Shown: piece after piece, positions 4,433 to 51,580 of the stretch
How positions within the stretch are numbered: position 1 is the first letter of the stretch
Layout of the letters: each line of letters begins with the position of its first letter
Source: Candidatus Latescibacterota bacterium
GTDB taxonomy: Bacteria > Latescibacterota > UBA2968 > UBA8231
NCBI GenBank assembly: GCA_965203355.1
Contig: OZ241889.1
Span: 2,848,001 to 2,912,000 of the forward strand
Reading direction: 5' to 3'
Length of the DNA stretch: 64,000 bases
Made by a program: the position numbers and the translations under genes
The notes under the pieces: model-generated
Database searches by the model: none
The model's input: the letters and a program-made list of their open reading frames with translations, nothing else
Told to the model about the DNA's origin: nothing

Positions 4433-7318
<2,886 letters not shown>

Positions 7319-7337: not shown

Positions 7338-8642
7338 TTATGGATACAGACGCTGCATCGTGCGCGGAAATGGAATGGTCTCGCGCACGTGCTTGACGCC
7401 GCACAACCAAGCGACCACCCGTTCGATGCCCATGCCGAAGCCCGCATGTTCTACGGATCCATAGCGCCGCAAGTCGAGATACCAGCTAAAGGCTTCGTCG
7501 GGCAACTGATGCGTGGAAATTTTGTGCTGCAAGACGGCAAGATCGTCTTCGCGTTGTCCGCCCCCGATGATTTCCCCGTAGCCTTCGGGTGCCAACAGGT
7601 CCATGCACAGGGCTAAGCGGCGATCTTGAGCATCTTCCTTCATGTAGAACGCTTTGACCGCGCTGGGATAGCGGTGGACGAAAACCGGCGAATCGAACTC
7701 AGAGGCCAAGAGCGTTTCGTCGTCCCCCCCCAGATCGCGCCCCCAGGCGATGTCGCTACCCAAGGCCGTCAAGCGCGCAACGGCCTTATCATAGGTCAGG
7801 CGCGGAAAGGGCCGGTTGATCTGTTCCAACTTGGCGGTATCTCGCTCGAGGAGCTTTAGCTCTTCGCGGCGGCGGTCGAGTACGCGGTCGAGCATGCACA
7901 AGACCATGTCCTCGGCTAGGGCCATGGCACCCGCTAGATCGCAATACGCCATCTCCGGCTCGATCATCCAGAACTCGGTCAGGTGACGGCGGGTCTTGGA
8001 TTTTTCAGCGCGAAACGTAGGCCCAAAACAATAGACTTTGCCTAAGGCCATGGCGGCCGCTTCCATATAGAGCTGGCCACTCTGGGTCAAATAAGCCGTG
8101 TCGTCAAAATACGCGGTCTCGAACAGAGTCGAAGTCCCCTCACAGGCGGCGGGCGTAAAAATCGGCGCATCCACGAGAACAAAGCCACGCGCTTCCATGA
8201 AGTCGCGGCAGGCTTTGCAAACTTCGCTGCGGATCTTGAGAATGGCCCCCGGACGAGCAGACCGCAGCCACAAGTGTCGGTGGTCGAGGAGAAAAGACAC
8301 TCCATGTTCCTTGGGTGTGATGGGGTATGGCTCCGCTTTCTGCACGACTTCGAGGTGGCTAACTCCGACCTCATAGCCGATCGGTGCCCGGGCCTCCCGC
8401 CGGACTTGACCGCGGATTACGAGCGAAGATTCTTGGGGCAAGTGATCGCACCGCTCGAACAGCTCGGCTTCGACATCCCCCTTAAAAACGACGCATTGCA
8501 CTACGCCACTGCCGTCACGCAGTTGCAAAAAATGCAGTTTGCCGCTCGAGCGCTTATTGTACAACCAACCGCGCAGCACCACTTCTCGGCCCTCGTAGCG
8601 ACCAATATCAGCCACCTGAATCGACTTCATTTGCTTATCCAT
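7338..8642 (-). CDS. asnS: Asparagine--tRNA ligase
   Basis: OB-fold N-terminus, [53 protein letters not shown]. Confidence 0.93.
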
Positions 8643-10880: not shown

Positions 10881-11153
10881 CTAACGGCGCAATCCCAACT
10901 CGTGGATCAACGCCGCATACGCCTGCGGGTTTTTCTTTTGGTAGTAGCTTTGCAATCGCCTCCTCTTGCCTATGAGGACGAGTAATCCCCGCCGCGTGGC
11001 AAAGTCCTTTTGCTGGTCTTTGAGGTGTTCGGTCAAGTTTCGGATGCGCTCGGTGAGAATGGCAATCTGCACCGGGGTGGCCCCGGGGCCTCCATCTTGC
11101 CCGAACTTCTCGATCAGCTCTTTCTTGCGCTCAGTTGTTATAGACAACGGCAA
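10881..11153 (-). CDS. rpsO: 30S ribosomal protein S15
   Basis: VQIAILTERIRNLTEHLK...RRGLL...GKRRRL...LGLRR; GGAGG RBS before TTG. Confidence 0.96.
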   Translation of the reverse strand: MPLSITTERKKELIEKFGQDGGPGATPVQIAILTERIRNLTEHLKDQQKDFATRRGLLVLIGKRRRLQSYYQKKNPQAYAALIHELGLRR

Positions 11154-11183: not shown

Positions 11184-11570
11184 TCAGCACTTGGAGGCGA
11201 ATAGGGCGCGTGCTTGGTGAATGTCTTTGCGAATTTGTCCTATCAGCTCGTCTGGACAGGCAAATGCGCGTTGGTCGCGCAGTTGCTTTACGAGGGCGAC
11301 CTGTAGAGTTTGTCCGTAGAGGTCGCCGGCAAAATCGAGTATGTGCAACTCGATGACTAGGGCGGCTTCGGCAAATGTAGGCCGAGGGCCAATGTGAGCC
11401 ACGGCCGGTAAAAACCCACTGCCAGGGTATTGTACTTCGGCGGCAAATACTCCCTGTGGCAAGGGTTTATCGCCATGAGGCCGCAAATTGGCCGTGGGAA
11501 ACCCCAGGGTTCTACCGCGTCCTTGGCCTCGCATGACGCGGCCGGAAAAATGGATGTCAGCACTTTCCAT
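11184..11570 (-). CDS. Monofunctional riboflavin kinase (RibF C-terminal domain only)
   Basis: GRGRTLGFPTANL, IGPRPTF, IELHILDF, DLYG; 128 aa; ATG directly abuts the truB stop. Confidence 0.9.
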   Translation of the reverse strand: MESADIHFSGRVMRGQGRGRTLGFPTANLRPHGDKPLPQGVFAAEVQYPGSGFLPAVAHIGPRPTFAEAALVIELHILDFAGDLYGQTLQVALVKQLRDQRAFACPDELIGQIRKDIHQARALFASKC

Positions 11571-12479
11571 CTAAGGTTGGCGCAAAACGCACAGGGGCCG
11601 CAATGCCCCCTGCTCCCATCGTGCGAGACCAAACAAGGTTTGTGCTGCGTCAAAAACCGCGCAGACCTCGCGCGGCCCTGTGCCAGTGGGATGCTCAATG
11701 GCCTTCCCATGAGCAAAATCAACCAGCTTGCCTTCGTTCAGTTCCACGACTGCCAGTTCGCTTAAGGCCAGTCGCGGATGGACGAGGGCCTTTTCAATTT
11801 GGCCTGCTCTACTAAGATGGGCTACTTGGTCTACCGTCAGGGCTTTGTCCAGCCCGAGCCCGCCAGCCCGCCGCCGGCGCAGTTCCGCCAAATAAGCACC
11901 CGTCCCCAACGCATCCCCCAGATCGGCGGCTAGCGCGCGAATATACGTTCCCGCAGAACAATGAATTTTTACGCTTAGTCTGGGGAAATCGTAGCCGAGT
12001 AACTCCATTGCATGGATGTGGACCCGGCGAGGTTTGAGGGCGATCTCATCCCCGCGACGCGCCCGCTTATACGAGCGCACCCCAGCTACTTTTACGGCTG
12101 AATACGCTGGCGGAATTTGGTCTATGCTCCCTGTAAAGTCGCGCAGGACTCGGGCCACACTTTGGCCGTCGGGAGGCGCACAGTCGGCTTGGTGGCGGAT
12201 CGGCCCTTCGGCATCGCCCGTAGCACTTATAGCCCCCAGACAAATCTCGGCCTCGTATTCCTTTTCCGCGCCACTGAGCCACTGGTTGAGCCGGGTATAG
12301 CGCCCCAAGCAAACGACCAAGACGCCGCTGGCCAAAGGATCGAGCGTACCGCAGTGCCCAATGCGCCGCAGTTGCAACAAACGCCGGAGCGAGACGATTA
12401 CGTCGTGGGAGGTGGGGCCTTTGGCTTTGTCGATGACCAAGACCCCGGTCAAGGCCGGATCAATCATGCGGCGTTCCAC
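11571..12479 (-). CDS. truB: tRNA pseudouridine(55) synthase
   Basis: GHCGTLDPLASGVL, QIPPAYSAVK, CSAGTYIRALA. Confidence 0.96.
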   Translation of the reverse strand: MERRMIDPALTGVLVIDKAKGPTSHDVIVSLRRLLQLRRIGHCGTLDPLASGVLVVCLGRYTRLNQWLSGAEKEYEAEICLGAISATGDAEGPIRHQADCAPPDGQSVARVLRDFTGSIDQIPPAYSAVKVAGVRSYKRARRGDEIALKPRRVHIHAMELLGYDFPRLSVKIHCSAGTYIRALAADLGDALGTGAYLAELRRRRAGGLGLDKALTVDQVAHLSRAGQIEKALVHPRLALSELAVVELNEGKLVDFAHGKAIEHPTGTGPREVCAVFDAAQTLFGLARWEQGALRPLCVLRQP

Positions 12480-31827: not shown

Positions 31828-34104
31828 TTAATCCTTCGCGATTTTGAGAAGACGCACACCAATGGTATAGCTGCGGGAATCGGGCGAGCGGAGGTGACGA
31901 TATGCCGACCGTACCCCGTCGATATGGCCGAAGTGGCCACCCCGGATGACGCGATTCAGGCCGGATGTAGGTCCCTGCGGGTCATTACGAACCGACCTAC
32001 TATAATACTCCTCGTCATACCAATCCTGAACCCACTCCCAAACATTCCCGTGCATGTCATATAGACCCCAAGGATTCGGCGACTTTTTACCTACCGCTTT
32101 TGCTCCGGTGGGAGAATTGTTGTCGTGATACCACGCATAATCCGCCAGCAGGCTTTCATCATCCCCAAACGACCACCGCGTATCTGTTCCCGCTCGACAC
32201 GCATACTCCCACTCCGCCTCCGTCGGAAGACGATACAATTCCTCGTCCGCTGCCGCATTTAGACGACCGATAAACTCCTGCACTTCATTCCAAGAGATAA
32301 TCACGGCCGGATGAGATGAGTCTGCCTTAACTAGGCTCCGACCAGACCAAGGCTCTTCACCCATCACCGACTTCCACTGTTCCTGCGTGACCTCGTATTT
32401 CCCCAACCAAAAACCACGACTAATCTCTACCTCATGGACTGGACTTTCGTCTCTTCGGCCTGTATCCGACCCCATCTGAAACACCCCTCGCTCGATCCAC
32501 ACAAACTCCATCTGTGCTCCTCCAGGAAGCCGCGAAACCGATACTTGGTCGTCCGTCTCTGTGCCATCGTCCACCACTTCGCCATCATCCGTCCCGGCGT
32601 TGCCTATATCAATTATATCAGAGCCGTCCACGTCCATCACGCGAATCGCAGAGTAGTTAGCTTCGCGCACCACGAAGGCGATCTGCTGGCCGTCCGATGA
32701 CAAGGAGGGGTAACTAGCACCGGTTGTTAGGTCCTGGAGATTGCCGCCATCTAAATCCATCGCGTAAATCGCAGAGTTAGGGCCGCTAGTGGTCGCAAAG
32801 ACGATCCGGCCATCTGGCAACCAAGAAGGAGGAGACGGGGCCGCCTTGTGATCGGTCAGGCGTTGGGGTTTGGGGGGTTTGTTCTCATCCAACAAATCAA
32901 TCACGTAAACCCCCCTACTCTTGTCGTCGCGCTCGGACACGAAGGCGATGTATCGACCGTCTGGCGACCAAGAAGGATAGTTATCCCTAGCCTCGTGATC
33001 GGTCAGGCGGTCGAGATTGTTCCTATCCGAATCCATCACGTAAATATCAAAGTTGCCAGCGCGATTGGACGCAAAAGCGATCTGACCATCTGGAGACCAA
33101 GAAGGATGATTATCCATAGCCTTGTGAGGGGCCAAGGGTTCGAGGTTCTTCCCATCCGAATCCATCACGTAAATATCAAAGCTGCCAGCGCGATTGGACG
33201 CAAAAGCGATCCGACGACCATCTGGAGACCAAGAAGGATGATTATCCGTAGCCTCCTTGCGAACGTTCAAGGAGTCGAGGTTCTGCCCATCCGAATCCAT
33301 CACGTAAATATCAAAGCTGCCAGCGCGATTGGACGCAAAGGCGATCCGACGACCATCTGGAGACCAAGAAGGATGCGTGTCCGAATACTTCAAGGCCGGT
33401 TTCCCGCTCACCATCGTCAACGGCTCCGCTTCCACTACCAACTCTACGGCTGCCATCCCCGCTCGAACCTCAAAAGCTGCATCCGTATAGGTCGTCAAGC
33501 CCTCGCCCGAAACAACGAGACCATATTCCCGTCCCACCGCGTCCGTGGACATAGTCGCCGCTGTCGAGGAAGTCGCCGCGATCCCCGCCTGCCCATCCAC
33601 GAGCACCATGCGCTGGGTCTGCTGCCCTCCACTCGTCGTCAACCGGTAGAAATACACCCCAGCCGCCATCGCCTGTCCCGCCGCATCGGTCGCGTCCCAT
33701 TTCGCCGTGTGAAAACCGGCCTGCTGCTCCGCGTCCACTAGCGTCGCAACATGCTGTCCCAACACGTTAAACACATCTAGCCGCACCTCGGTAGCCGCAG
33801 GCAGTTGATAAGGGATCACGGTCGAAGGATTGAAGGGGTTAGGGTAGTTATGTCCTAGGGCAAATCCCTGCGGCAAGGCCGCCCCGCCCAACGACGCCAG
33901 CGGCAGCGCGAAATACCCAGACTCGTCGGTCATCGCCCGTGCCACCGCGCCTTGATGCGAATCAGCTAAGTCAAACAGCGTTACTTGTGCCCCGGCCACT
34001 GGTCGCCCATCGGCAAGCCGCACCTGCCCGGAAACAGTGGATTGCTGCGCCATATTCGCTTGACAGAGTATCAAGCCCATCAGACATACCATTAAAAGCT
34101 TCAT
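31828..34104 (-). CDS. Secreted multidomain protein: carboxypeptidase-regulatory-like + T9SS-CTD/FlgD-Ig-like + PD40 (TolB-like) repeats + FGE-sulfatase (SUMF1) domain
   Basis: Signal peptide, VSGQV...G.PVAGA.V, NYPNPFNPST...GVYFYRL, repeated PSWSPDG..IAF, RLPTEAEWEYACRAG, NPWGLYDMHGNVWEW. Confidence 0.85.
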   Translation of the reverse strand: MKLLMVCLMGLILCQANMAQQSTVSGQVRLADGRPVAGAQVTLFDLADSHQGAVARAMTDESGYFALPLASLGGAALPQGFALGHNYPNPFNPSTVIPYQLPAATEVRLDVFNVLGQHVATLVDAEQQAGFHTAKWDATDAAGQAMAAGVYFYRLTTSGGQQTQRMVLVDGQAGIAATSSTAATMSTDAVGREYGLVVSGEGLTTYTDAAFEVRAGMAAVELVVEAEPLTMVSGKPALKYSDTHPSWSPDGRRIAFASNRAGSFDIYVMDSDGQNLDSLNVRKEATDNHPSWSPDGRRIAFASNRAGSFDIYVMDSDGKNLEPLAPHKAMDNHPSWSPDGQIAFASNRAGNFDIYVMDSDRNNLDRLTDHEARDNYPSWSPDGRYIAFVSERDDKSRGVYVIDLLDENKPPKPQRLTDHKAAPSPPSWLPDGRIVFATTSGPNSAIYAMDLDGGNLQDLTTGASYPSLSSDGQQIAFVVREANYSAIRVMDVDGSDIIDIGNAGTDDGEVVDDGTETDDQVSVSRLPGGAQMEFVWIERGVFQMGSDTGRRDESPVHEVEISRGFWLGKYEVTQEQWKSVMGEEPWSGRSLVKADSSHPAVIISWNEVQEFIGRLNAAADEELYRLPTEAEWEYACRAGTDTRWSFGDDESLLADYAWYHDNNSPTGAKAVGKKSPNPWGLYDMHGNVWEWVQDWYDEEYYSRSVRNDPQGPTSGLNRVIRGGHFGHIDGVRSAYRHLRSPDSRSYTIGVRLLKIAKD
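32960..33376. repeat. Near-identical 132-135 bp tandem repeats encoding PD40 blades
   Basis: TCTGGAGACCAAGAAGGATG recurs at 33089, 33221 and 33356 with nearly identical flanks. Confidence 0.85.
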
Positions 34105-34241
34105 AGAACAATCCCTTATCATTGTGAGATCAGAAATCGGCCTTTGGTTGGCGTGGTTCGTCGCTTTTTAAGGCCGTTTTGAAGGAACAGCAACCGGAAC
34201 GGGACTTCGCTGCGCCTCGCCATGCGGTGTTGTAGAACGTT

Positions 34242-34279
34242 AAGTCCCGGCCAGACCTACTCCTGCCCAGCCGGGACTT
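34242..34279. terminator. Stem-loop downstream of the 331-aa gene
   Basis: AAGTCCCGGC...GCCGGGACTT 10-bp inverted repeat; weak U tract. Confidence 0.45.
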
Positions 34280-34441
34280 ACCATCACACAGATTAATCGG
34301 CGAATGTCGCCTTGATACGGCCCCAAGAGGAAGCCTCAGTGGCAGCGGCAGAGACCGGCTACCATCACACAGATTAATCGGCGAATGTCGCCTTGATACG
34401 GCCCCAAGAGGAAGCCTCAGTGGCAGCGGCAGAGACCGGCT
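34280..34441. repeat. Exact 81-bp tandem duplication
   Basis: 34280-34360 is identical to 34361-34441; the unit covers the last ~21 codons and stop of the 331-aa gene. Confidence 0.95.
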
Positions 34442-35369
34442 TAGCCGCCGGCCGCCAATAAGGCGCAACATCAATCACATACTCATCCGGGTCATGCACG
34501 GCCGGCTGTAAAAGCCGAATACTGGTATAGTCGAACTCCGCATAAGGAAAACTTTCTCTACCCCCTAAGGATTTTGTAAGGCCCTGTTCATTTTGTTCCC
34601 CCACAAAAGTCAAATCCTCGTTTGGCAGAGTCGCCTCCTCAGATGTCTTCGCCCGAATTGTAAATGAAATAATGCGAGGAGCCACCATTATGTCATCATA
34701 GACTTCAACTGGACATCCCAGACAAGGAGCAGCGGGACCGGATCCAAACTCCGTCCGCGACGCTTGGAAACTGTCATGGACTTCAACCAAATCGCTGAAG
34801 ATAGCATACAATTCCTTGCGACAGCGCGGCCTATTATCATTACAGGCTCGATATTTTTGAGAGCCATTAGCATTCAATCCGTCCGGCTCGTATCCGTCGG
34901 TTTCGAAAAACGCTCTCAGGGTCTGTCGTGGATCACCAGGTAATGGTTCACCGTACTGGGGCCCCTCAAGGCCTAGAATGTTTTTGAAAAGCGAGTCCTC
35001 AGTAGTTTTAGCATAAGCCAAGGGAATCCAAGCTGGATACCAAGAGCTGGTACCATCGCCACGATTCCTTATATCCGCTTTTAAGAAAGCCTCAGCCGCT
35101 AAAATTCGCGCCGCATTGTCCCGCGCCACCTGAGCTAGTTGCGCTTCTCTTGCTGGGGTAAAATCGCGCTCGAACGTCGTCCAAAGTAAAGGATCGCGCC
35201 ACTTTACCATGTATTCCTCCACTTCCTCCGTCACTTCCTCGTCACCTATGGGATCCACCATATAGACAGCAACCGTTACCCAATCATCCTCTTGGGCGAA
35301 AGACACGTTCAAAGCGAACAACATGCTGAGAAATAGGGCAATCATTCGGCCCCCGTTAAGTATAGCCAT
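34374..35369 (-). CDS. Secreted hypothetical protein with C-terminal TEASSWGRIKATF motif
   Basis: GGAGG RBS, signal peptide ending VSFA-Q, C-terminal AAKPVSAAATEASSWGRIKATFAD. Confidence 0.75.
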   Translation of the reverse strand: MAILNGGRMIALFLSMLFALNVSFAQEDDWVTVAVYMVDPIGDEEVTEEVEEYMVKWRDPLLWTTFERDFTPAREAQLAQVARDNAARILAAEAFLKADIRNRGDGTSSWYPAWIPLAYAKTTEDSLFKNILGLEGPQYGEPLPGDPRQTLRAFFETDGYEPDGLNANGSQKYRACNDNRPRCRKELYAIFSDLVEVHDSFQASRTEFGSGPAAPCLGCPVEVYDDIMVAPRIISFTIRAKTSEEATLPNEDLTFVGEQNEQGLTKSLGGRESFPYAEFDYTSIRLLQPAVHDPDEYVIDVAPYWRPAAKPVSAAATEASSWGRIKATFAD

Positions 35370-36176: not shown

Positions 36177-36734
36177 CTATCTCCGCTCTAAGGCCGCGAA
36201 CGCGGGCTTTAGGGCCTGATAATCCGCCCCCAAACGGGCGAAGATGGCGGCCCACCGGTGCGGATAGGATGGATGGCTGTTATTGGGCAAAAAGCCCAAC
36301 TTGAGATAGCTGCGCAGTGCCGGGATGCGGAAATCGTCCGTCAGCAAGTATATGGGCCTAGCACCTAGCGCCTTGGCTTGGGCTACCGCCGCTGCTACGA
36401 TGAACTTGCCTAAGCCGTGCCCCTGAAAGGCTGGGTGGACCGCAACCCAACCAATCTCCCAACATGGCCGCAGTTCGCGGGTGCGGTCGTTACACCCTGC
36501 ACAAGCGACGATCGGCCCCTCGCACTCGACAAAAAGCAGGACCCGAGTTCCTGCCAAAACGTCCGCTAGCCGTTGTCGATCCCAATGACCTAGCTCGCCG
36601 TTAGCCTGCAATAGGGCTAACCAACCCTCCTCGTCGCCCGGCTGGTACGTCCGCAAGCGATAGCCGGCCATGGCTGGTACGTCCGGGGCTGTCTCGCGCC
36701 CATACCAGAGGATGAGCTGGGGCAAGCGACTCAA
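36177..36734 (-). CDS. GNAT-family N-acetyltransferase
   Basis: VAVHPAFQGHGLGK acetyl-CoA motif A, ALRSYLKLGF. Confidence 0.88.
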   Translation of the reverse strand: MSRLPQLILWYGRETAPDVPAMAGYRLRTYQPGDEEGWLALLQANGELGHWDRQRLADVLAGTRVLLFVECEGPIVACAGCNDRTRELRPCWEIGWVAVHPAFQGHGLGKFIVAAAVAQAKALGARPIYLLTDDFRIPALRSYLKLGFLPNNSHPSYPHRWAAIFARLGADYQALKPAFAALERR

Positions 36735-37141
36735 GCGCGACCTTCCCGACGGCGAAAGAGAGACGACTTAAACTGCTCCGGGCAATGGGGCTGAAGCACG
36801 ACGATTTCGCACTGGGGGAAGGCTTCGGCCAAGCCCTGTGGCCTTCTTTGGTCATAGCCGAGGGCAATAATGTGGGGCGCGATCTCGCCGACGATGCGCA
36901 AAAAGTTGCACCCCTCGTGGCCGAGGCGGACTTCGGTGACTTCGGGCAGTTTCGCCAGCGCGGCTTTGCGCTCTTCTTGGGATTGATCGGGATAGTGCCC
37001 CTTGATGCGTTGGACGTTGTCGTCGCGGGCGACCACGACGAACAGTTCGTCGCCCAGCGCAGCCGCCTGCGCGATGAAGGAGCGGTGACCTGGGTGCAGG
37101 TAATCAAAGGTGCCGCAGCACAATACGCGCGTTTTATTCAT
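36731..37141 (-). CDS. ribL: Archaeal RibL-type FAD synthase (cytidylyltransferase family)
   Basis: GTFDYLHPGH, LGDEL.VVVARD, IIALGYDQ, C-terminal C..KSS; 136 aa. Confidence 0.7.
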   Translation of the reverse strand: MNKTRVLCCGTFDYLHPGHRSFIAQAAALGDELFVVVARDDNVQRIKGHYPDQSQEERKAALAKLPEVTEVRLGHEGCNFLRIVGEIAPHIIALGYDQRRPQGLAEAFPQCEIVVLQPHCPEQFKSSLFRRREGRA

Positions 37142-37571
37142 CAGCGCGCCGAGCTATCCAATACTCGACACCGCGATCCTTGGCAAAAATGCGGCCAAAG
37201 CGGTCGGCGTCGGCGCGGTTGGCGAAATAGCCGATCCGCACCCGCACGCCAGCATCGCTTTGCAGGCTATAGGCCGTATAACCCTCGTCCTTCAAGGCAC
37301 GCACCTTCTGATCGGCGCGTTTCGCATCCCGAAAGACGCCGACTTGAATGGTGAATGGGCCGTCGGGATCGAAAAATACAGGGCTAACATCGCTGGTATC
37401 GCTGGTATCGCTGGTACTGGCTGGGGTCGACGCGGAGTCCGTTGGCGTTAAGATGACTATTTCACTGCGGCCAGCGGGTTTGGATTCGGGAACATCGCTG
37501 TCGGCGCACCCCCCGATCCAGAGAACGGTCCAAGCGAGCATCCACAGCCAACTGGGATTCGCCGTGCTCAA
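37134..37571 (-). CDS. SPOR-domain lipoprotein
   Basis: Lipobox-like IGGC, S/T linker, FTIQVGVF...RVRIGYFANRADA. Confidence 0.8.
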   Translation of the reverse strand: MSTANPSWLWMLAWTVLWIGGCADSDVPESKPAGRSEIVILTPTDSASTPASTSDTSDTSDVSPVFFDPDGPFTIQVGVFRDAKRADQKVRALKDEGYTAYSLQSDAGVRVRIGYFANRADADRFGRIFAKDRGVEYWIARRADE

Positions 37572-38857
37572 TGTACAGCCTTGAGTGCATCAAAGTGAAT
37601 GCGGAGCGTTTCTTCAATGTCCCCTTCTTTGTGGACGAGCGAGGGAAACATGCACTCGTATTGGGAGGGCGCTAGATAGAGGCCCTGCTCTAGACAGGCC
37701 CAGAAATAGTGCTTAAAGCGCGTCAGATCAACCGTTTCGACGCTGGCAAAATTCACCACCGGGCACGAAGTAAAAAACATGCAGAGCATGGCACCAACTC
37801 GGTTTAGCGCGTAGTTCAAGCCTAATTTTTGTAGGTTGTCGGCCATGCCAGCCGCCAAGGCGGCGCAGCGGCTCTCCAGCGTTTCATAGACGCCGGGTTC
37901 GGCCAACATGTTTAATTGCTCTAAGCCCGCGGCCATGGCGAGCGGATTACCCGATAAAGTGCCGGCCTGCGAGACCTTGATGCCCAGCGGCGACACGTTT
38001 TCCATGATCTCTCGCTTGCCGCCGTACGCCGCGGCCGGCAAGCCACCACCGACGATCTTGCCCAAACACGTCAGGTCGGGCATCACGCCATAGCGCTCTT
38101 GCGCCCCACCACGGCCGACGCGGAATCCCGTAATGACCTCATCGAAGATGAGGACAATTCCCTCTTCGTCGGCTATTTGGCGCAGCGCGGGGAGGAACCC
38201 CTCGCGCGGCGGCACGGTTCCCATATTGCCGGCCACGGGTTCGACGATAATCGCGGCGATCTGGCCGCTGTTTTCCCGCACGGCCACGCGCACGGCATCC
38301 GCGTCGTTATACGGCAGCGTCAAGGTCGAATCCACCACGCTTTGCGGCACACCTGGACTTGTGGGAACGCCTAAGGTCAGGGCCGAAGATCCTGCCTCGC
38401 TCAAGAAGCTGTCCCCATGCCCGTGCCAGCAGCCCTCGAATTTGGCGATCTTGTCCCGGCCGGTATGGCCGCGAGCCAAGCGCACCGCCGCCATCGTGGC
38501 TTCGGTCCCCGAACTGACCATCCGCACCATCTCGATGGAGGGCACCATCGCCACAATGCGCTCGGCCAGCGCGATTTCCAGTTCGGTTGGGGCACCAAAA
38601 CTGGTCCCCTTTGCACAGGCTGCCTGCACGGCTTTTACGACGCGAGGATGGGCATGGCCGAAAATGAGTGGCCCCCAAGAGCACACGTAGTCAATGTATT
38701 CGCGGCCATCAATGTCAAAAATCCGCGAACCAACTCCTCGCTCAATAAAGCGAGGACCACCACCCACTGCGCCAAAAGCTCGCGCCGGACTGTTCACGCC
38801 CCCGGGCATGACCTGCTGTGCTTGGGCAAAAGCGGCGGCGGATCTAGGTGCTGGCAT
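37568..38857 (-). CDS. hemL: Glutamate-1-semialdehyde 2,1-aminomutase
   Basis: MPGGVNSP.RAF, SWGP, SGTEA, DEVITGFR, GKIVGGGLP, QAGTLSGNP. Confidence 0.96.
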   Translation of the reverse strand: MPAPRSAAAFAQAQQVMPGGVNSPARAFGAVGGGPRFIERGVGSRIFDIDGREYIDYVCSWGPLIFGHAHPRVVKAVQAACAKGTSFGAPTELEIALAERIVAMVPSIEMVRMVSSGTEATMAAVRLARGHTGRDKIAKFEGCWHGHGDSFLSEAGSSALTLGVPTSPGVPQSVVDSTLTLPYNDADAVRVAVRENSGQIAAIIVEPVAGNMGTVPPREGFLPALRQIADEEGIVLIFDEVITGFRVGRGGAQERYGVMPDLTCLGKIVGGGLPAAAYGGKREIMENVSPLGIKVSQAGTLSGNPLAMAAGLEQLNMLAEPGVYETLESRCAALAAGMADNLQKLGLNYALNRVGAMLCMFFTSCPVVNFASVETVDLTRFKHYFWACLEQGLYLAPSQYECMFPSLVHKEGDIEETLRIHFDALKAVH

Positions 38858-38904: not shown

Positions 38905-39426
38905 TTAGTCGTCGTAATCGTCATCGTCGTAATCATCGTCGTAATCGTCGTCGTGATCATCGTCGTCGTAATCGTCATCGTCGTAATCATCATCGTAATC
39001 ATCATCGTGATCATCGTCATCGCGATCATCGTCGTAATCATCATCGTCGTAATCATCGTCATCGTAATCATCGTCATCGCGATCATCGTCGTAATCATCG
39101 TCGTGATCGTCGTCGTCATCATCACGACGAGCAGCATTGGCACACGCTGCCTCATAGATATATTTGCGGCCGGCAACCACCAAGGTATCAGAGAGTCTTA
39201 TCCAGCCCGATTCAATGGTGTAGCGGATCGGTATCGTTATCTGGAGTTCCGGGTTTGCGGTGCCGACTGTCTTGCCAGCAACCGCTAGATAGTTGACCCC
39301 GTTGATCGCTACAGTCTCCCAAGCCGCGTCAATTTGCGCTGGTGTAGTGCTCGTCGGCGGCTCTTCACCACAAGACCACAACATGCCAATGCTACCAAGC
39401 AAGCCCCAGCAAATGATCCTTTTCAT
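38905..39426 (-). CDS. Lipoprotein with poly-Asp C-terminal tail
   Basis: AAGGAG RBS, signal peptide with LWSC lipobox, 72-aa tail containing 57 Asp. Confidence 0.75.
   Translation of the reverse strand: MKRIICWGLLGSIGMLWSCGEEPPTSTTPAQIDAAWETVAINGVNYLAVAGKTVGTANPELQITIPIRYTIESGWIRLSDTLVVAGRKYIYEAACANAARRDDDDDDHDDDYDDDRDDDDYDDDDYDDDDYDDDRDDDDHDDDYDDDYDDDDYDDDDHDDDYDDDYDDDDYDD
38908..39123 (-). repeat. Degenerate (GAY)n trinucleotide repeat encoding D3-4[YHR]
   Basis: 216 nt of GAT/GAC codons interrupted by TAC, CAC and CGC. Confidence 0.9.
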
Positions 39427-49694: not shown

Positions 49695-50300
49695 ATGGCA
49701 ATCGTACCCGTAGTAATCGAACAGACCGGTCGCGGCGAGCGTGCCTACGATATTTTCTCGCGCCTCCTCAAGGAACGGATAATTTTTATCAGCACTCAGA
49801 TCGACGACCACGAAGCCAACCTCGTCATCGCCCAGTTGCTCTTTCTAGCCTCAGAAGATCCCAAGAAAGACATCTCGCTCTACATCAACAGCCCCGGCGG
49901 CAGCCTCACGGCCGGCTTGGCCATCTACGACACCATGAAGCACGTCCCCTGCGACGTAGCAACGCTGTGCATCGGCCAAGCGTACAGCATGAGCGCAATT
50001 CTCCTCGCTGGCGGGACCCAAGGCAAGCGCCACGCCCTGGCCCATTCTCGGCTCATGCTGCACCAGCCTTGGGGTGGCGTCCGCGGCCAAGCGGCTGATA
50101 TCGAAATCCACGCCCGCGAAATCGTCGAGTGGCGCGACCGGCTCAACCAGATCTTAGTCCAAGATACCGGCCAGTCGCTCGAGCGCATCGAGCTGGTCAC
50201 CGAGCGCGATTACTTTCTATCGCCGGCCGAGGCGATCGATTTCGGCCTGATTGACGGGCTGCTGGCATCCGAAAAAGAGCTGGCCACCCTCGCCGACTAA
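49695..50300 (+). CDS. clpP: ATP-dependent Clp protease proteolytic subunit
   Basis: [29 protein letters not shown]. Confidence 0.96.
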
Positions 50301-51580
50301 TGCCCCAGTGGAAAGGCGATGACCTCTTCTAGGCAAGACGCGCCAGCCATAATCACAACCAACCGATCCAACCCCAAAGCCACGCCACCGGCTGGCGGAA
50401 TGCCTCGCTCCATAGCTGCGAGAAATGCCTCGTCGGCTGGTGCGCCTCCTGACCGCACCCCCCGCGCAAAGCGCTCTCGCTGCTGGGTTGGGTCGTTTAA
50501 CTCGGTATAGCCGTTTGATAACTCCACTCCCCCCAAGTACGCTTCCGTCCTCTCGGCTACGGCTGGATCGCCTTCTTTTAACTTGGCCAATGCGGCTAAT
50601 TGCCGGGGATAATCGAAAAGGTGGACAGCCCCTAGTTTGGCCAATTCTGGCTCGACTCTCTCCAGCAGAATTTTGTGGTATAAGTCCTCCCAACGATCCG
50701 CTTGTCTAGCACTGTCATAGCCCAGCGCACGCGCTTGGCGAAAAAGTGATTCCGCGTCTGCACAGGCATCCAAATCGACAGCAGCCCAGCGCACAAAAGC
50801 ATCGCGGACGCTGAGCCGCTCCCACGGCGGCTGCAAGCGGATCTCGCGCCCTGCTCGGACCACGCTCGACCGCCCCAAGACGCTTTCCGCCACATGGGCC
50901 ACCAAGTGCTCGACATCGGCCATGATTTCCGCGTAACTGGCGTACGCCCGATACCATTCGATTAGGGTAAACTCGGGGTTGTGTTGCGGCCCCAACTCCC
51001 CGTTGCGGTACGAGCGGCTGATCTGGTAAATCCGCTCAAAACCCACTCCTAACAATCGCTTCATGTATAGCTCGGGTGAAGGGGCAAGGTAAAGCGGCTC
51101 TTGCGACTTGTCGCCCTGGTACTCCGTGGCAAATAGCTCAATGTGCTCCTCTTGCGCCGAGGCGCGGGCCAGTGTGGGCGTCTCCACCGCGAGAAAGCCC
51201 AGATTCCTAAAAAAATCGCGTACAGCGTCTAATACGGCGGCGCGCACCCGCATATTCGCCCACAGTCCATTGGCGTGGAACCGCGACCAATCTCCTTGGC
51301 GCCAATCCGCTCGACTAGAGGCTAATAAGCGAATTTGATTAACATCTATAATCCCTTCTGCCGCAATCCCATATAACTCCACTATATCCCCGGCTTTTAT
51401 CCCAGCTACCCCTGTCTTGACGACGAAATTGACCTCCCCACTCTCGTCTGCGATGCGCCCTCGACCTGCGGCGAAGCGGAGGAGCCGCCCTCGCACAGCC
51501 ACTTCTCCGACGGCGGTGGCCGCGGTGGCCGCAGGCTGGTGCCGCCACAGCACCCGCGATGGATAATGCCTAGGCTGCAT
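50297..51580 (-). CDS. epmA: EF-P lysine aminoacylase EpmA (GenX) with N-terminal OB-like domain
   Basis: [20 protein letters not shown]...[28 protein letters not shown]. Confidence 0.85.

Follow-up and report, generated by a model that had tools for sequence, protein, structure and literature searches.

A RibL-family protein and a kinase-only RibF as a predicted two-protein route to FAD in an order of Latescibacterota

The RibL-like gene and its surroundings

The gene studied here is the third of four overlapping genes on the minus strand of the window, by which we mean the whole 64-kb stretch of DNA that was analysed:

37568..38857, minus strand: hemL (glutamate-1-semialdehyde 2,1-aminomutase), at the head of the overlapping operon (NF000818, 618 bits)
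37134..37571, minus strand: SPOR-domain protein (SPOR, 1.9e-11), with overlaps of 4 nt (hemL) and 8 nt (RibL-like gene)
36731..37141, minus strand: RibL-family nucleotidyltransferase, predicted FMN adenylyltransferase (FAD synthase); ATG ORF, 136 aa
36177..36734, minus strand: GNAT-family acetyltransferase (GNAT, 6.3e-15), overlapping the RibL-like gene by 4 nt

An overlapping hemL-SPOR-ribL-GNAT operon had been described in an earlier, sequence-only reading of this DNA, and both the coordinates and the domain matches of the neighbours confirm it, with successive overlaps of 4, 8 and 4 nt. The motif strings listed in that reading are each found in the translation of the third gene: GTFDYLHPGH at residues 10-19, which includes the HxGH motif as H16-P-G-H19, GDELFVVVARD at 30-40, IIALGYDQ at 91-98 (LGYDQ at 94-98), and C120-PEQF-K125-S126-S127, with KSS at 125-127. 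The ORF is a real gene, given its match to Pfam CTP_transf_like and its homologues of similar length, of which there are 261 (61-93% identity among the 120 matches listed). The order SPOR-ribL-GNAT persists at identities as low as 55%, in 43 of 44 Latescibacterota-type loci, and hemL lies upstream in 41 of the 44, two of the three exceptions running off the end of the locus. As hemL, SPOR and GNAT are without a known link to flavins, we draw no functional inference from the operon neighbours. An Rfam scan of the window returned two tRNAs only, and an FMN riboswitch was not found. The GNAT protein, which is the downstream partner in 43 of the 44 loci, has an MshD-like model as its best named match (30 bits).

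Several other features of the window deserve a brief record. A 173-aa ORF at 38905-39426 (minus strand) has a lipoprotein-like N-terminus (LWSCGEE) and a long Asp/Tyr-rich C-terminal tract (DDDDYDDD), with no Pfam family; the tract is encoded by imperfect tandem repeats of 12, 15 and 27 nt at 38909-39124 (about 8 copies of the 27-nt unit, 76% matches). A tandem duplication of 81 nt, perfect over its 2.0 copies (100% identical), occupies 34279-34441, between a 331-aa ORF (34374-35369) and a gene of unusual architecture at 31828-34122 (minus strand, 764 aa). In the product of the latter, a CarboxypepD_reg/FlgD_ig-like region at the N-terminus is combined with repeated beta-propeller blades of the PD40 type and, at the C-terminus, an FGE-sulfatase (formylglycine-generating-enzyme-like) domain. 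Two paralogous class-II (D/K/N-type) aminoacyl-tRNA synthetases are encoded within the same 64 kb, at 7338-8642 and 50297-51580 (both minus strand), and in the latter the OB anticodon-binding domain was not detected.

Assignment to the RibL family

Pfam matches of the 136-aa protein are confined to CTP_transf_like (1.8e-11), and among the NCBIfam models the generic TIGR00125 is the sole one above its cut-off, the best named model after it being rfaE_dom_II. The scores of named models are as follows:

RfaE-II/HldC (rfaE_dom_II, TIGR02199): 52.5 bits, cut-off 181.5, covering profile positions 12-106 of 144 only
TagD glycerol-3-phosphate cytidylyltransferase (TIGR01518): 28.6 bits, cut-off 165.4
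Archaeal PPAT (NF001985): 36.8 bits, cut-off 104
PPAT (TIGR01510): 22.9 bits, cut-off 103.3

Scoring against RfaE-II and TagD models had been suggested in the sequence-only reading, and it places the protein far below both cut-offs. The archaeal RibL-type protein of Methanococcoides sp. FTZ1 (L146) behaves in the same way, with generic or sub-threshold NCBIfam and Pfam matches only. Since these collections are without a RibL-specific model, sub-threshold scores of named models do not count against RibL. On the FAD_syn side, there is a weak match of 16 bits to NF045965, around HxGH.

The best solved relative is PDB entry 3glv of Thermoplasma volcanium, found at 1.3e-17 with the single sequence and at 142 bits (8.6e-41, positions 1-135 of 138) with family profile A1, which was built from 58 aligned family sequences; the next-best structures for this profile were ECT (104 bits, spread over two domains) and TagD (66-68 bits). 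The invariant columns of the profile are G10, D13, H16, G18, H19, R58, G74, G95, D97 and Q98. An AF2 model computed from the single sequence was unusable (pLDDT 46.7), and an alignment-based model (pLDDT 92.1) was used instead. In a Foldseek search with this model 3glv ranked first (37% identity), with TagD, HldC and other cytidylyltransferases close behind, and the top matches were all cytidylyl- or adenylyltransferases. The entry is thus the closest solved structure both by sequence and by fold; it is a structural-genomics entry deposited under the generic name "lipopolysaccharide core biosynthesis protein", and is probably the RibL of T. volcanium.

The five related genomes searched for paralogs (G001-G005) contain 4-5 PF01467 matches each. 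All five encode a separate RfaE-II-like paralog, that of G001 scoring 169.4 bits over positions 7-143, just under the cut-off of 181.5, and all five encode a true CoaD (190-199 bits). Homologues of the 136-aa protein already carry the names "FAD synthetase" (JGI) and "FAD synthase [Candidatus Latescibacteria bacterium]" (NCBI); in the Protein Atlas they fall into clusters with the unspecific titles "cytidylyltransferase-like" and "FAD synthase family", whose taxon labels are doubtful and which we did not count as evidence.

Comparison with archaea was based on 80 loci from Thermoplasmatota, Methanosarcinales, Methanomicrobiales, Methanobacteriales, Archaeoglobales, Halobacteriales and others, Methanocaldococcus not being among them. 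In each of five archaeal genomes the 136-aa protein matched a single RibL-type gene (E 8e-19 to 1.4e-15), the second-best match being 4.6e-3 or worse. In the reverse direction, the Methanococcoides RibL-type protein ranked the RibL-like locus first in five of five Latescibacterota genomes (4e-21 to 1.3e-14) and an RfaE-II-like paralog second (7e-11 to 1e-8); the margin of these reciprocal best hits is modest, at 56.6 vs 37.4 bits in G001. A maximum-likelihood tree (79 rows by 141 columns, with TagD, PPAT and ECT sequences left out) separates the RibL family from the RfaE-II paralogs of the same genomes with support of 100/100. All 44 bacterial rows, comprising the Latescibacterota clade, CPR and metagenomic sequences and the domains of fusion proteins, form one clade (96/98), while the archaeal rows are paraphyletic to it with weak support (53/83 and 59/91), which applies to the root within the family as well. 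Because the bacterial rows are monophyletic, we assign the RibL-like gene to a bacterial branch that is shared with CPR. A recent gene transfer from archaea is not supported, as 44 of 44 bacterial rows fall into one clade.

The C-terminal motif differs between the branches. Several methanogen and Archaeoglobaceae homologues have C-x-x-C-S-S where the bacterial clade has E-x-x-K-S-S in the same columns, and in the 136-aa protein the positions of the archaeal cysteine pair are taken by E122 and K125. Cys120 is not conserved, being replaced by H, Y or Q in close relatives, and it does not align with the methanogen pair, so that the alignment rules it out as a RibL cysteine. KSS, by contrast with this incidental cysteine, is conserved across the bacterial clade; of the "C...KSS" pattern in the sequence-only reading, the second part thus stands and the first does not. 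The term "archaeal RibL-type" used there needs a similar adjustment: membership of the RibL family is upheld by 3glv, the reciprocal hits and the tree, but the bacterial sequences are a monophyletic clade and "archaeal" applies at the level of the family only. Thermoplasmata homologues in the alignment likewise have no cysteine pair. In PMC11423594, the two conserved cysteines of archaeal RibL are linked to air sensitivity, and an active Entamoeba enzyme is described that is devoid of them. This enzyme and the Thermoplasmata sequences suggest that the pair marks a methanogen subtype rather than activity, and the air sensitivity ascribed to it in that paper may not apply to the 136-aa protein, in which the pair is absent.

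By sequence, predicted fold and tree we therefore place the 136-aa protein in the RibL family. Its orthology to the characterised MJ1179 and Entamoeba histolytica enzymes is suggested by the matches in archaeal genomes and by a statement in PMC5397151.

Kinase-only ribF, domain loss and distribution

FAD synthesis is essential, and the bacterial route is treated as the job of the bifunctional RibF. The window does contain a ribF gene, in the following setting:

11571..12479, minus strand: truB, conserved neighbour upstream of ribF, marking the slot where the FMNAT half is missing
11184..11570, minus strand: kinase-only RibF (riboflavin kinase domain), 128 aa; Flavokinase 2.4e-37, no FAD_syn domain
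10881..11153, minus strand: rpsO (S15), conserved neighbour downstream of ribF

This is the kinase-only gene to which the sequence-only reading had referred, and it lies 25 kb from the RibL-like gene. When examined as a bifunctional RibF, it has Flavokinase alone and the N-terminal FAD_syn domain is absent; against the RibF model TIGR00083 it aligns to positions 171-289 of 290 and scores 111.6 bits (cut-off 184). Its start codon abuts the truB stop, so that an FMNAT domain could not fit in between. Genomes with and without the FMNAT half share the order rbfA-truB-ribF-rpsO. In RibL-bearing genomes (loci L064-L068) the kinase domain begins 4-80 nt after truB, whereas the RibF-bearing loci of the phylum (L069-L074) have an FMNAT-coding segment of about 570 nt between truB and the kinase domain. 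The FMNAT half of RibF has thus been lost in place, and sister orders keep the full RibF in the same slot.

Genome-wide searches were run on relatives of the window genome, not on its own assembly. The closest loci are 93-96% identical and come from "Candidatus Latescibacterota" MAGs, some of which were labelled Gemmatimonadetes by their submitters. The genomes searched gave the following counts:

Phylum sample, 120 genomes: FAD_syn (PF06574) in 77, RibL-like gene in 33, both in 0, neither in 10
Class sample, 100 genomes: FAD_syn in 49
GTDB order of the window, all 75 genomes: FAD_syn in 0, RibL-like gene in 66

RibL-like calls in the phylum sample were full-length matches with E 1e-42 or better and at least 54% identity, the weaker matches (1e-9 to 1e-12) being RfaE-like paralogs. 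Flavokinase is present in 115 of the 120 genomes, including 32 of the 33 with a RibL-like gene. The co-occurrence proposed in the sequence-only reading is therefore borne out: FAD_syn and the RibL-like gene never overlap in the 120 genomes, and within the order they stand at 0 and 66 of 75. All 33 RibL-bearing genomes of the phylum sample belong to the order of the window, so that they represent a single evolutionary event within Latescibacterota and not 33 independent ones. Genomes of this order measure about 3.6-7.9 Mb, and several have been assembled as single chromosomes. In this order, which lacks FAD_syn, the FMNAT candidate is the RibL-like gene, in a search that covered FAD_syn and RibL-like proteins, not eukaryote-type FADS. 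A different kind of split RibF was seen in one genome of the phylum sample (G051), with FAD_syn at 5881-6228 (plus strand) and Flavokinase at 8023-8391 (minus strand) of contig C80.

Nine of the 75 genomes of the order (G048, G081, G095, G102, G107, G112, G115, G137 and G139) have neither type of FMNAT, and at least six of them keep the kinase-only flavokinase. A divergent RibL was sought with the family profile in five of the nine, which returned RfaE-II-like genes only, and in two of the nine the hemL locus has no SPOR-ribL-GNAT downstream. All nine are MAGs, and the six smallest genomes of the set (3.5-4.3 Mb) are among them. Either these MAGs are incomplete or the lineage has another FMNAT.

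The same pairing recurs in CPR bacteria. Among five CPR genomes with a RibL-like gene, four have a kinase-only flavokinase (open frames of 114-134 aa), and FAD_syn was above its cut-off in none of the five. Six weak FAD_syn matches were seen in these genomes, five of them on the RibL-like genes themselves, around HxGH (19-25 bits).

Gene fusions were surveyed by Pfam domains in the best 150 cluster representatives of the RibL-like family, from a search that retrieved 3852 proteins at E 1e-3 or better. Within these best 150, the RibL-like domain is fused to Flavokinase in two proteins (P0220 and P0257) and to TruB, the canonical neighbour of ribF, in four (P0152, P0221, P0245 and P0189). Two more (P0149 and P0173) are fusions with Ham1, and a RibB fragment is found on P0251. 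The partner in P0149 and P0173, from metagenomic bacteria, is a non-canonical NTP pyrophosphatase of the Ham1/RdgB type. In P0263 the fusion partner is a PAP2 membrane phosphatase, and in P0169 it is a methyltransferase.

A proposed hybrid route to FAD and its relation to known systems

Membership of the RibL family, phyletic complementarity, loss of the FMNAT domain and fusions of RibL-like and kinase domains are shown by the data. To explain them, we favour a hybrid route from riboflavin to FAD in two proteins, a RibL-family FMN adenylyltransferase of 136 aa and a stand-alone kinase, which is very likely fixed in the order. In this route the product of the kinase-only ribF (11184-11570) would supply FMN from riboflavin, and the 136-aa protein, with the small Rossmann-like fold of its predicted structure, would make FAD from FMN and ATP through its HxGH/KSS nucleotidyltransferase site. 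We predict an FAD synthase function for this protein with good confidence; that it is catalytically active, and uses ATP rather than CTP, is part of the same prediction, and it may tolerate oxygen, because the archaeal cysteine pair is absent. The kinase-only ribF would be the remnant of a RibF that lost its N-terminal FMNAT domain by in-place deletion inside the rbfA-truB-ribF-rpsO operon. The split pathway by non-orthologous displacement, as proposed in the sequence-only reading, is accordingly in good agreement with the complementarity with the FMNAT of RibF, the pairing in CPR and the fusions. In its wider form, this interpretation holds that an old, monophyletic bacterial branch of RibL (E-x-x-K-S-S, plausibly oxygen-tolerant) is the sole FAD synthase of CPR and of a whole Latescibacterota-affiliated order, where it took over from the FMNAT half of RibF, which was cleanly deleted in place, and this we regard as probable.

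The substrate might be a different one, such that the protein transfers to heptose-1-phosphate (RfaE-II/HldC), glycerol-3-phosphate (TagD) or phosphopantetheine (PPAT) and resembles RibL at the family level only. That just the generic TIGR00125 exceeds its cut-off, followed by rfaE_dom_II as the next named model, would fit such a function, as would the name under which 3glv was deposited, the proximity of TagD and HldC to 3glv in the Foldseek scores, and operon neighbours that encode a cell-wall-binding SPOR protein and a GNAT. We nevertheless consider it very unlikely, as the scores of 52.5, 28.6 and 36.8 bits are far from the cut-offs (181.5, 165.4 and 104), and a bona fide archaeal RibL-type protein is likewise sub-threshold. 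The same genomes have a true CoaD as well as an RfaE-II-like paralog that is full-length (169.4 bits), and the tree sets the protein apart from the RfaE-II paralogs at 100/100. Another substrate would explain neither the exact complementarity with the FMNAT of RibF nor the fusions with riboflavin kinase.

FAD could instead come from a third, unrecognised FMN adenylyltransferase, or from outside the cell, with the RibL-like gene not essential for its supply. The nine genomes of the order that have neither FAD_syn nor a RibL-like gene point this way, as at least six retain the kinase-only flavokinase, the five that were searched yielded RfaE-II-like genes only, and two have a hemL locus without SPOR-ribL-GNAT. 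These nine are, however, MAGs that include the six smallest genomes of the set, and no candidate third enzyme was identified in the genomes searched. That 66 of 75 genomes carry the RibL-like gene, with synteny preserved and identities as low as 54%, indicates purifying selection, and there seems to be only a small chance that FAD is supplied by such other means. We therefore retain the hybrid route of kinase-only RibF and RibL-type enzyme as the best explanation.

On this explanation, a whole bacterial order has swapped the FAD-forming half of its enzyme for a RibL-type protein, with the ancestral state kept in sister orders at the same slot, and is thus a clear case from nature in which a single protein domain has been displaced non-orthologously. 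Differences from the human enzyme have made RibF a target of drug development. The order would also offer a bacterial, possibly oxygen-tolerant RibL for comparison with the air-sensitive archaeal enzyme, and would correct rules for pathway reconstruction by which these genomes, and those of CPR, are otherwise scored as unable to make FAD. The new element is the fixation of the trait throughout an order of bacteria with large genomes whose sister orders keep RibF, so that the displacement is visible in place. The advance is a modest one, as every component comes from a known family and annotation pipelines already name the protein.

Our literature search, which covered papers without their supplements, found none on a bacterial route of kinase-only RibF and RibL, nor one for Latescibacteria. 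For Parcubacteria, PMC4508563 reports no ribKL/ribF genes in the genomes examined there. RibL of Methanocaldococcus jannaschii (MJ1179) is the archaeal FAD synthase (Mashhadi et al. 2010, as cited in PMC5397151 and PMC11423594), and its orthologues are said in the former to occur in all archaea and to be absent from Bacteria. If a RibL-type enzyme is indeed the sole FAD synthase of CPR and of this order, that statement of absence in PMC5397151 is contradicted.

The proposed route is reminiscent of several known systems. With the bifunctional bacterial RibF (FAD_syn, PF06574, plus Flavokinase, PF01687) it would share the overall chemistry, in which riboflavin is converted to FMN and then to FAD; the truB-ribF-rpsO slot still contains the kinase half, and FAD_syn was not found in the 75 genomes of the order. 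The fusion proteins P0220 and P0257 re-create a bifunctional protein comparable to RibF, in that a RibL-like domain is joined to the kinase. CPR/Patescibacteria share the enzyme clade, and there too the gene is paired with a kinase-only flavokinase, but the order of the window differs from them in its large genomes, in the fixation of the trait across the order, in having the two genes 25 kb apart and not joined in a flavin operon, and in its own conserved context of hemL-SPOR-x-GNAT. The 136-aa protein and its archaeal RibL homologues are alike in being small stand-alone proteins of about 140 aa with HxGH, (V/I)ARD, LG(Y)DQ and a C-terminal x-S-S. They differ in that the methanogen type has C-x-x-C-S-S where the 136-aa protein has E-x-x-K-S-S, and also in the partner kinase, which here is a bacterial flavokinase of the ATP type and in archaea the CTP-dependent RibK. 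A further parallel, drawn from its description in PMC11423594, is the archaeal-type FADS of the eukaryote E. histolytica (EHI_198800), reported there as laterally acquired from archaea and accompanied by a separate riboflavin kinase. FAD synthase activity has been demonstrated for this enzyme, which, like the 136-aa protein, belongs to the RibL family, occurs outside the archaea and does not have the two cysteines.
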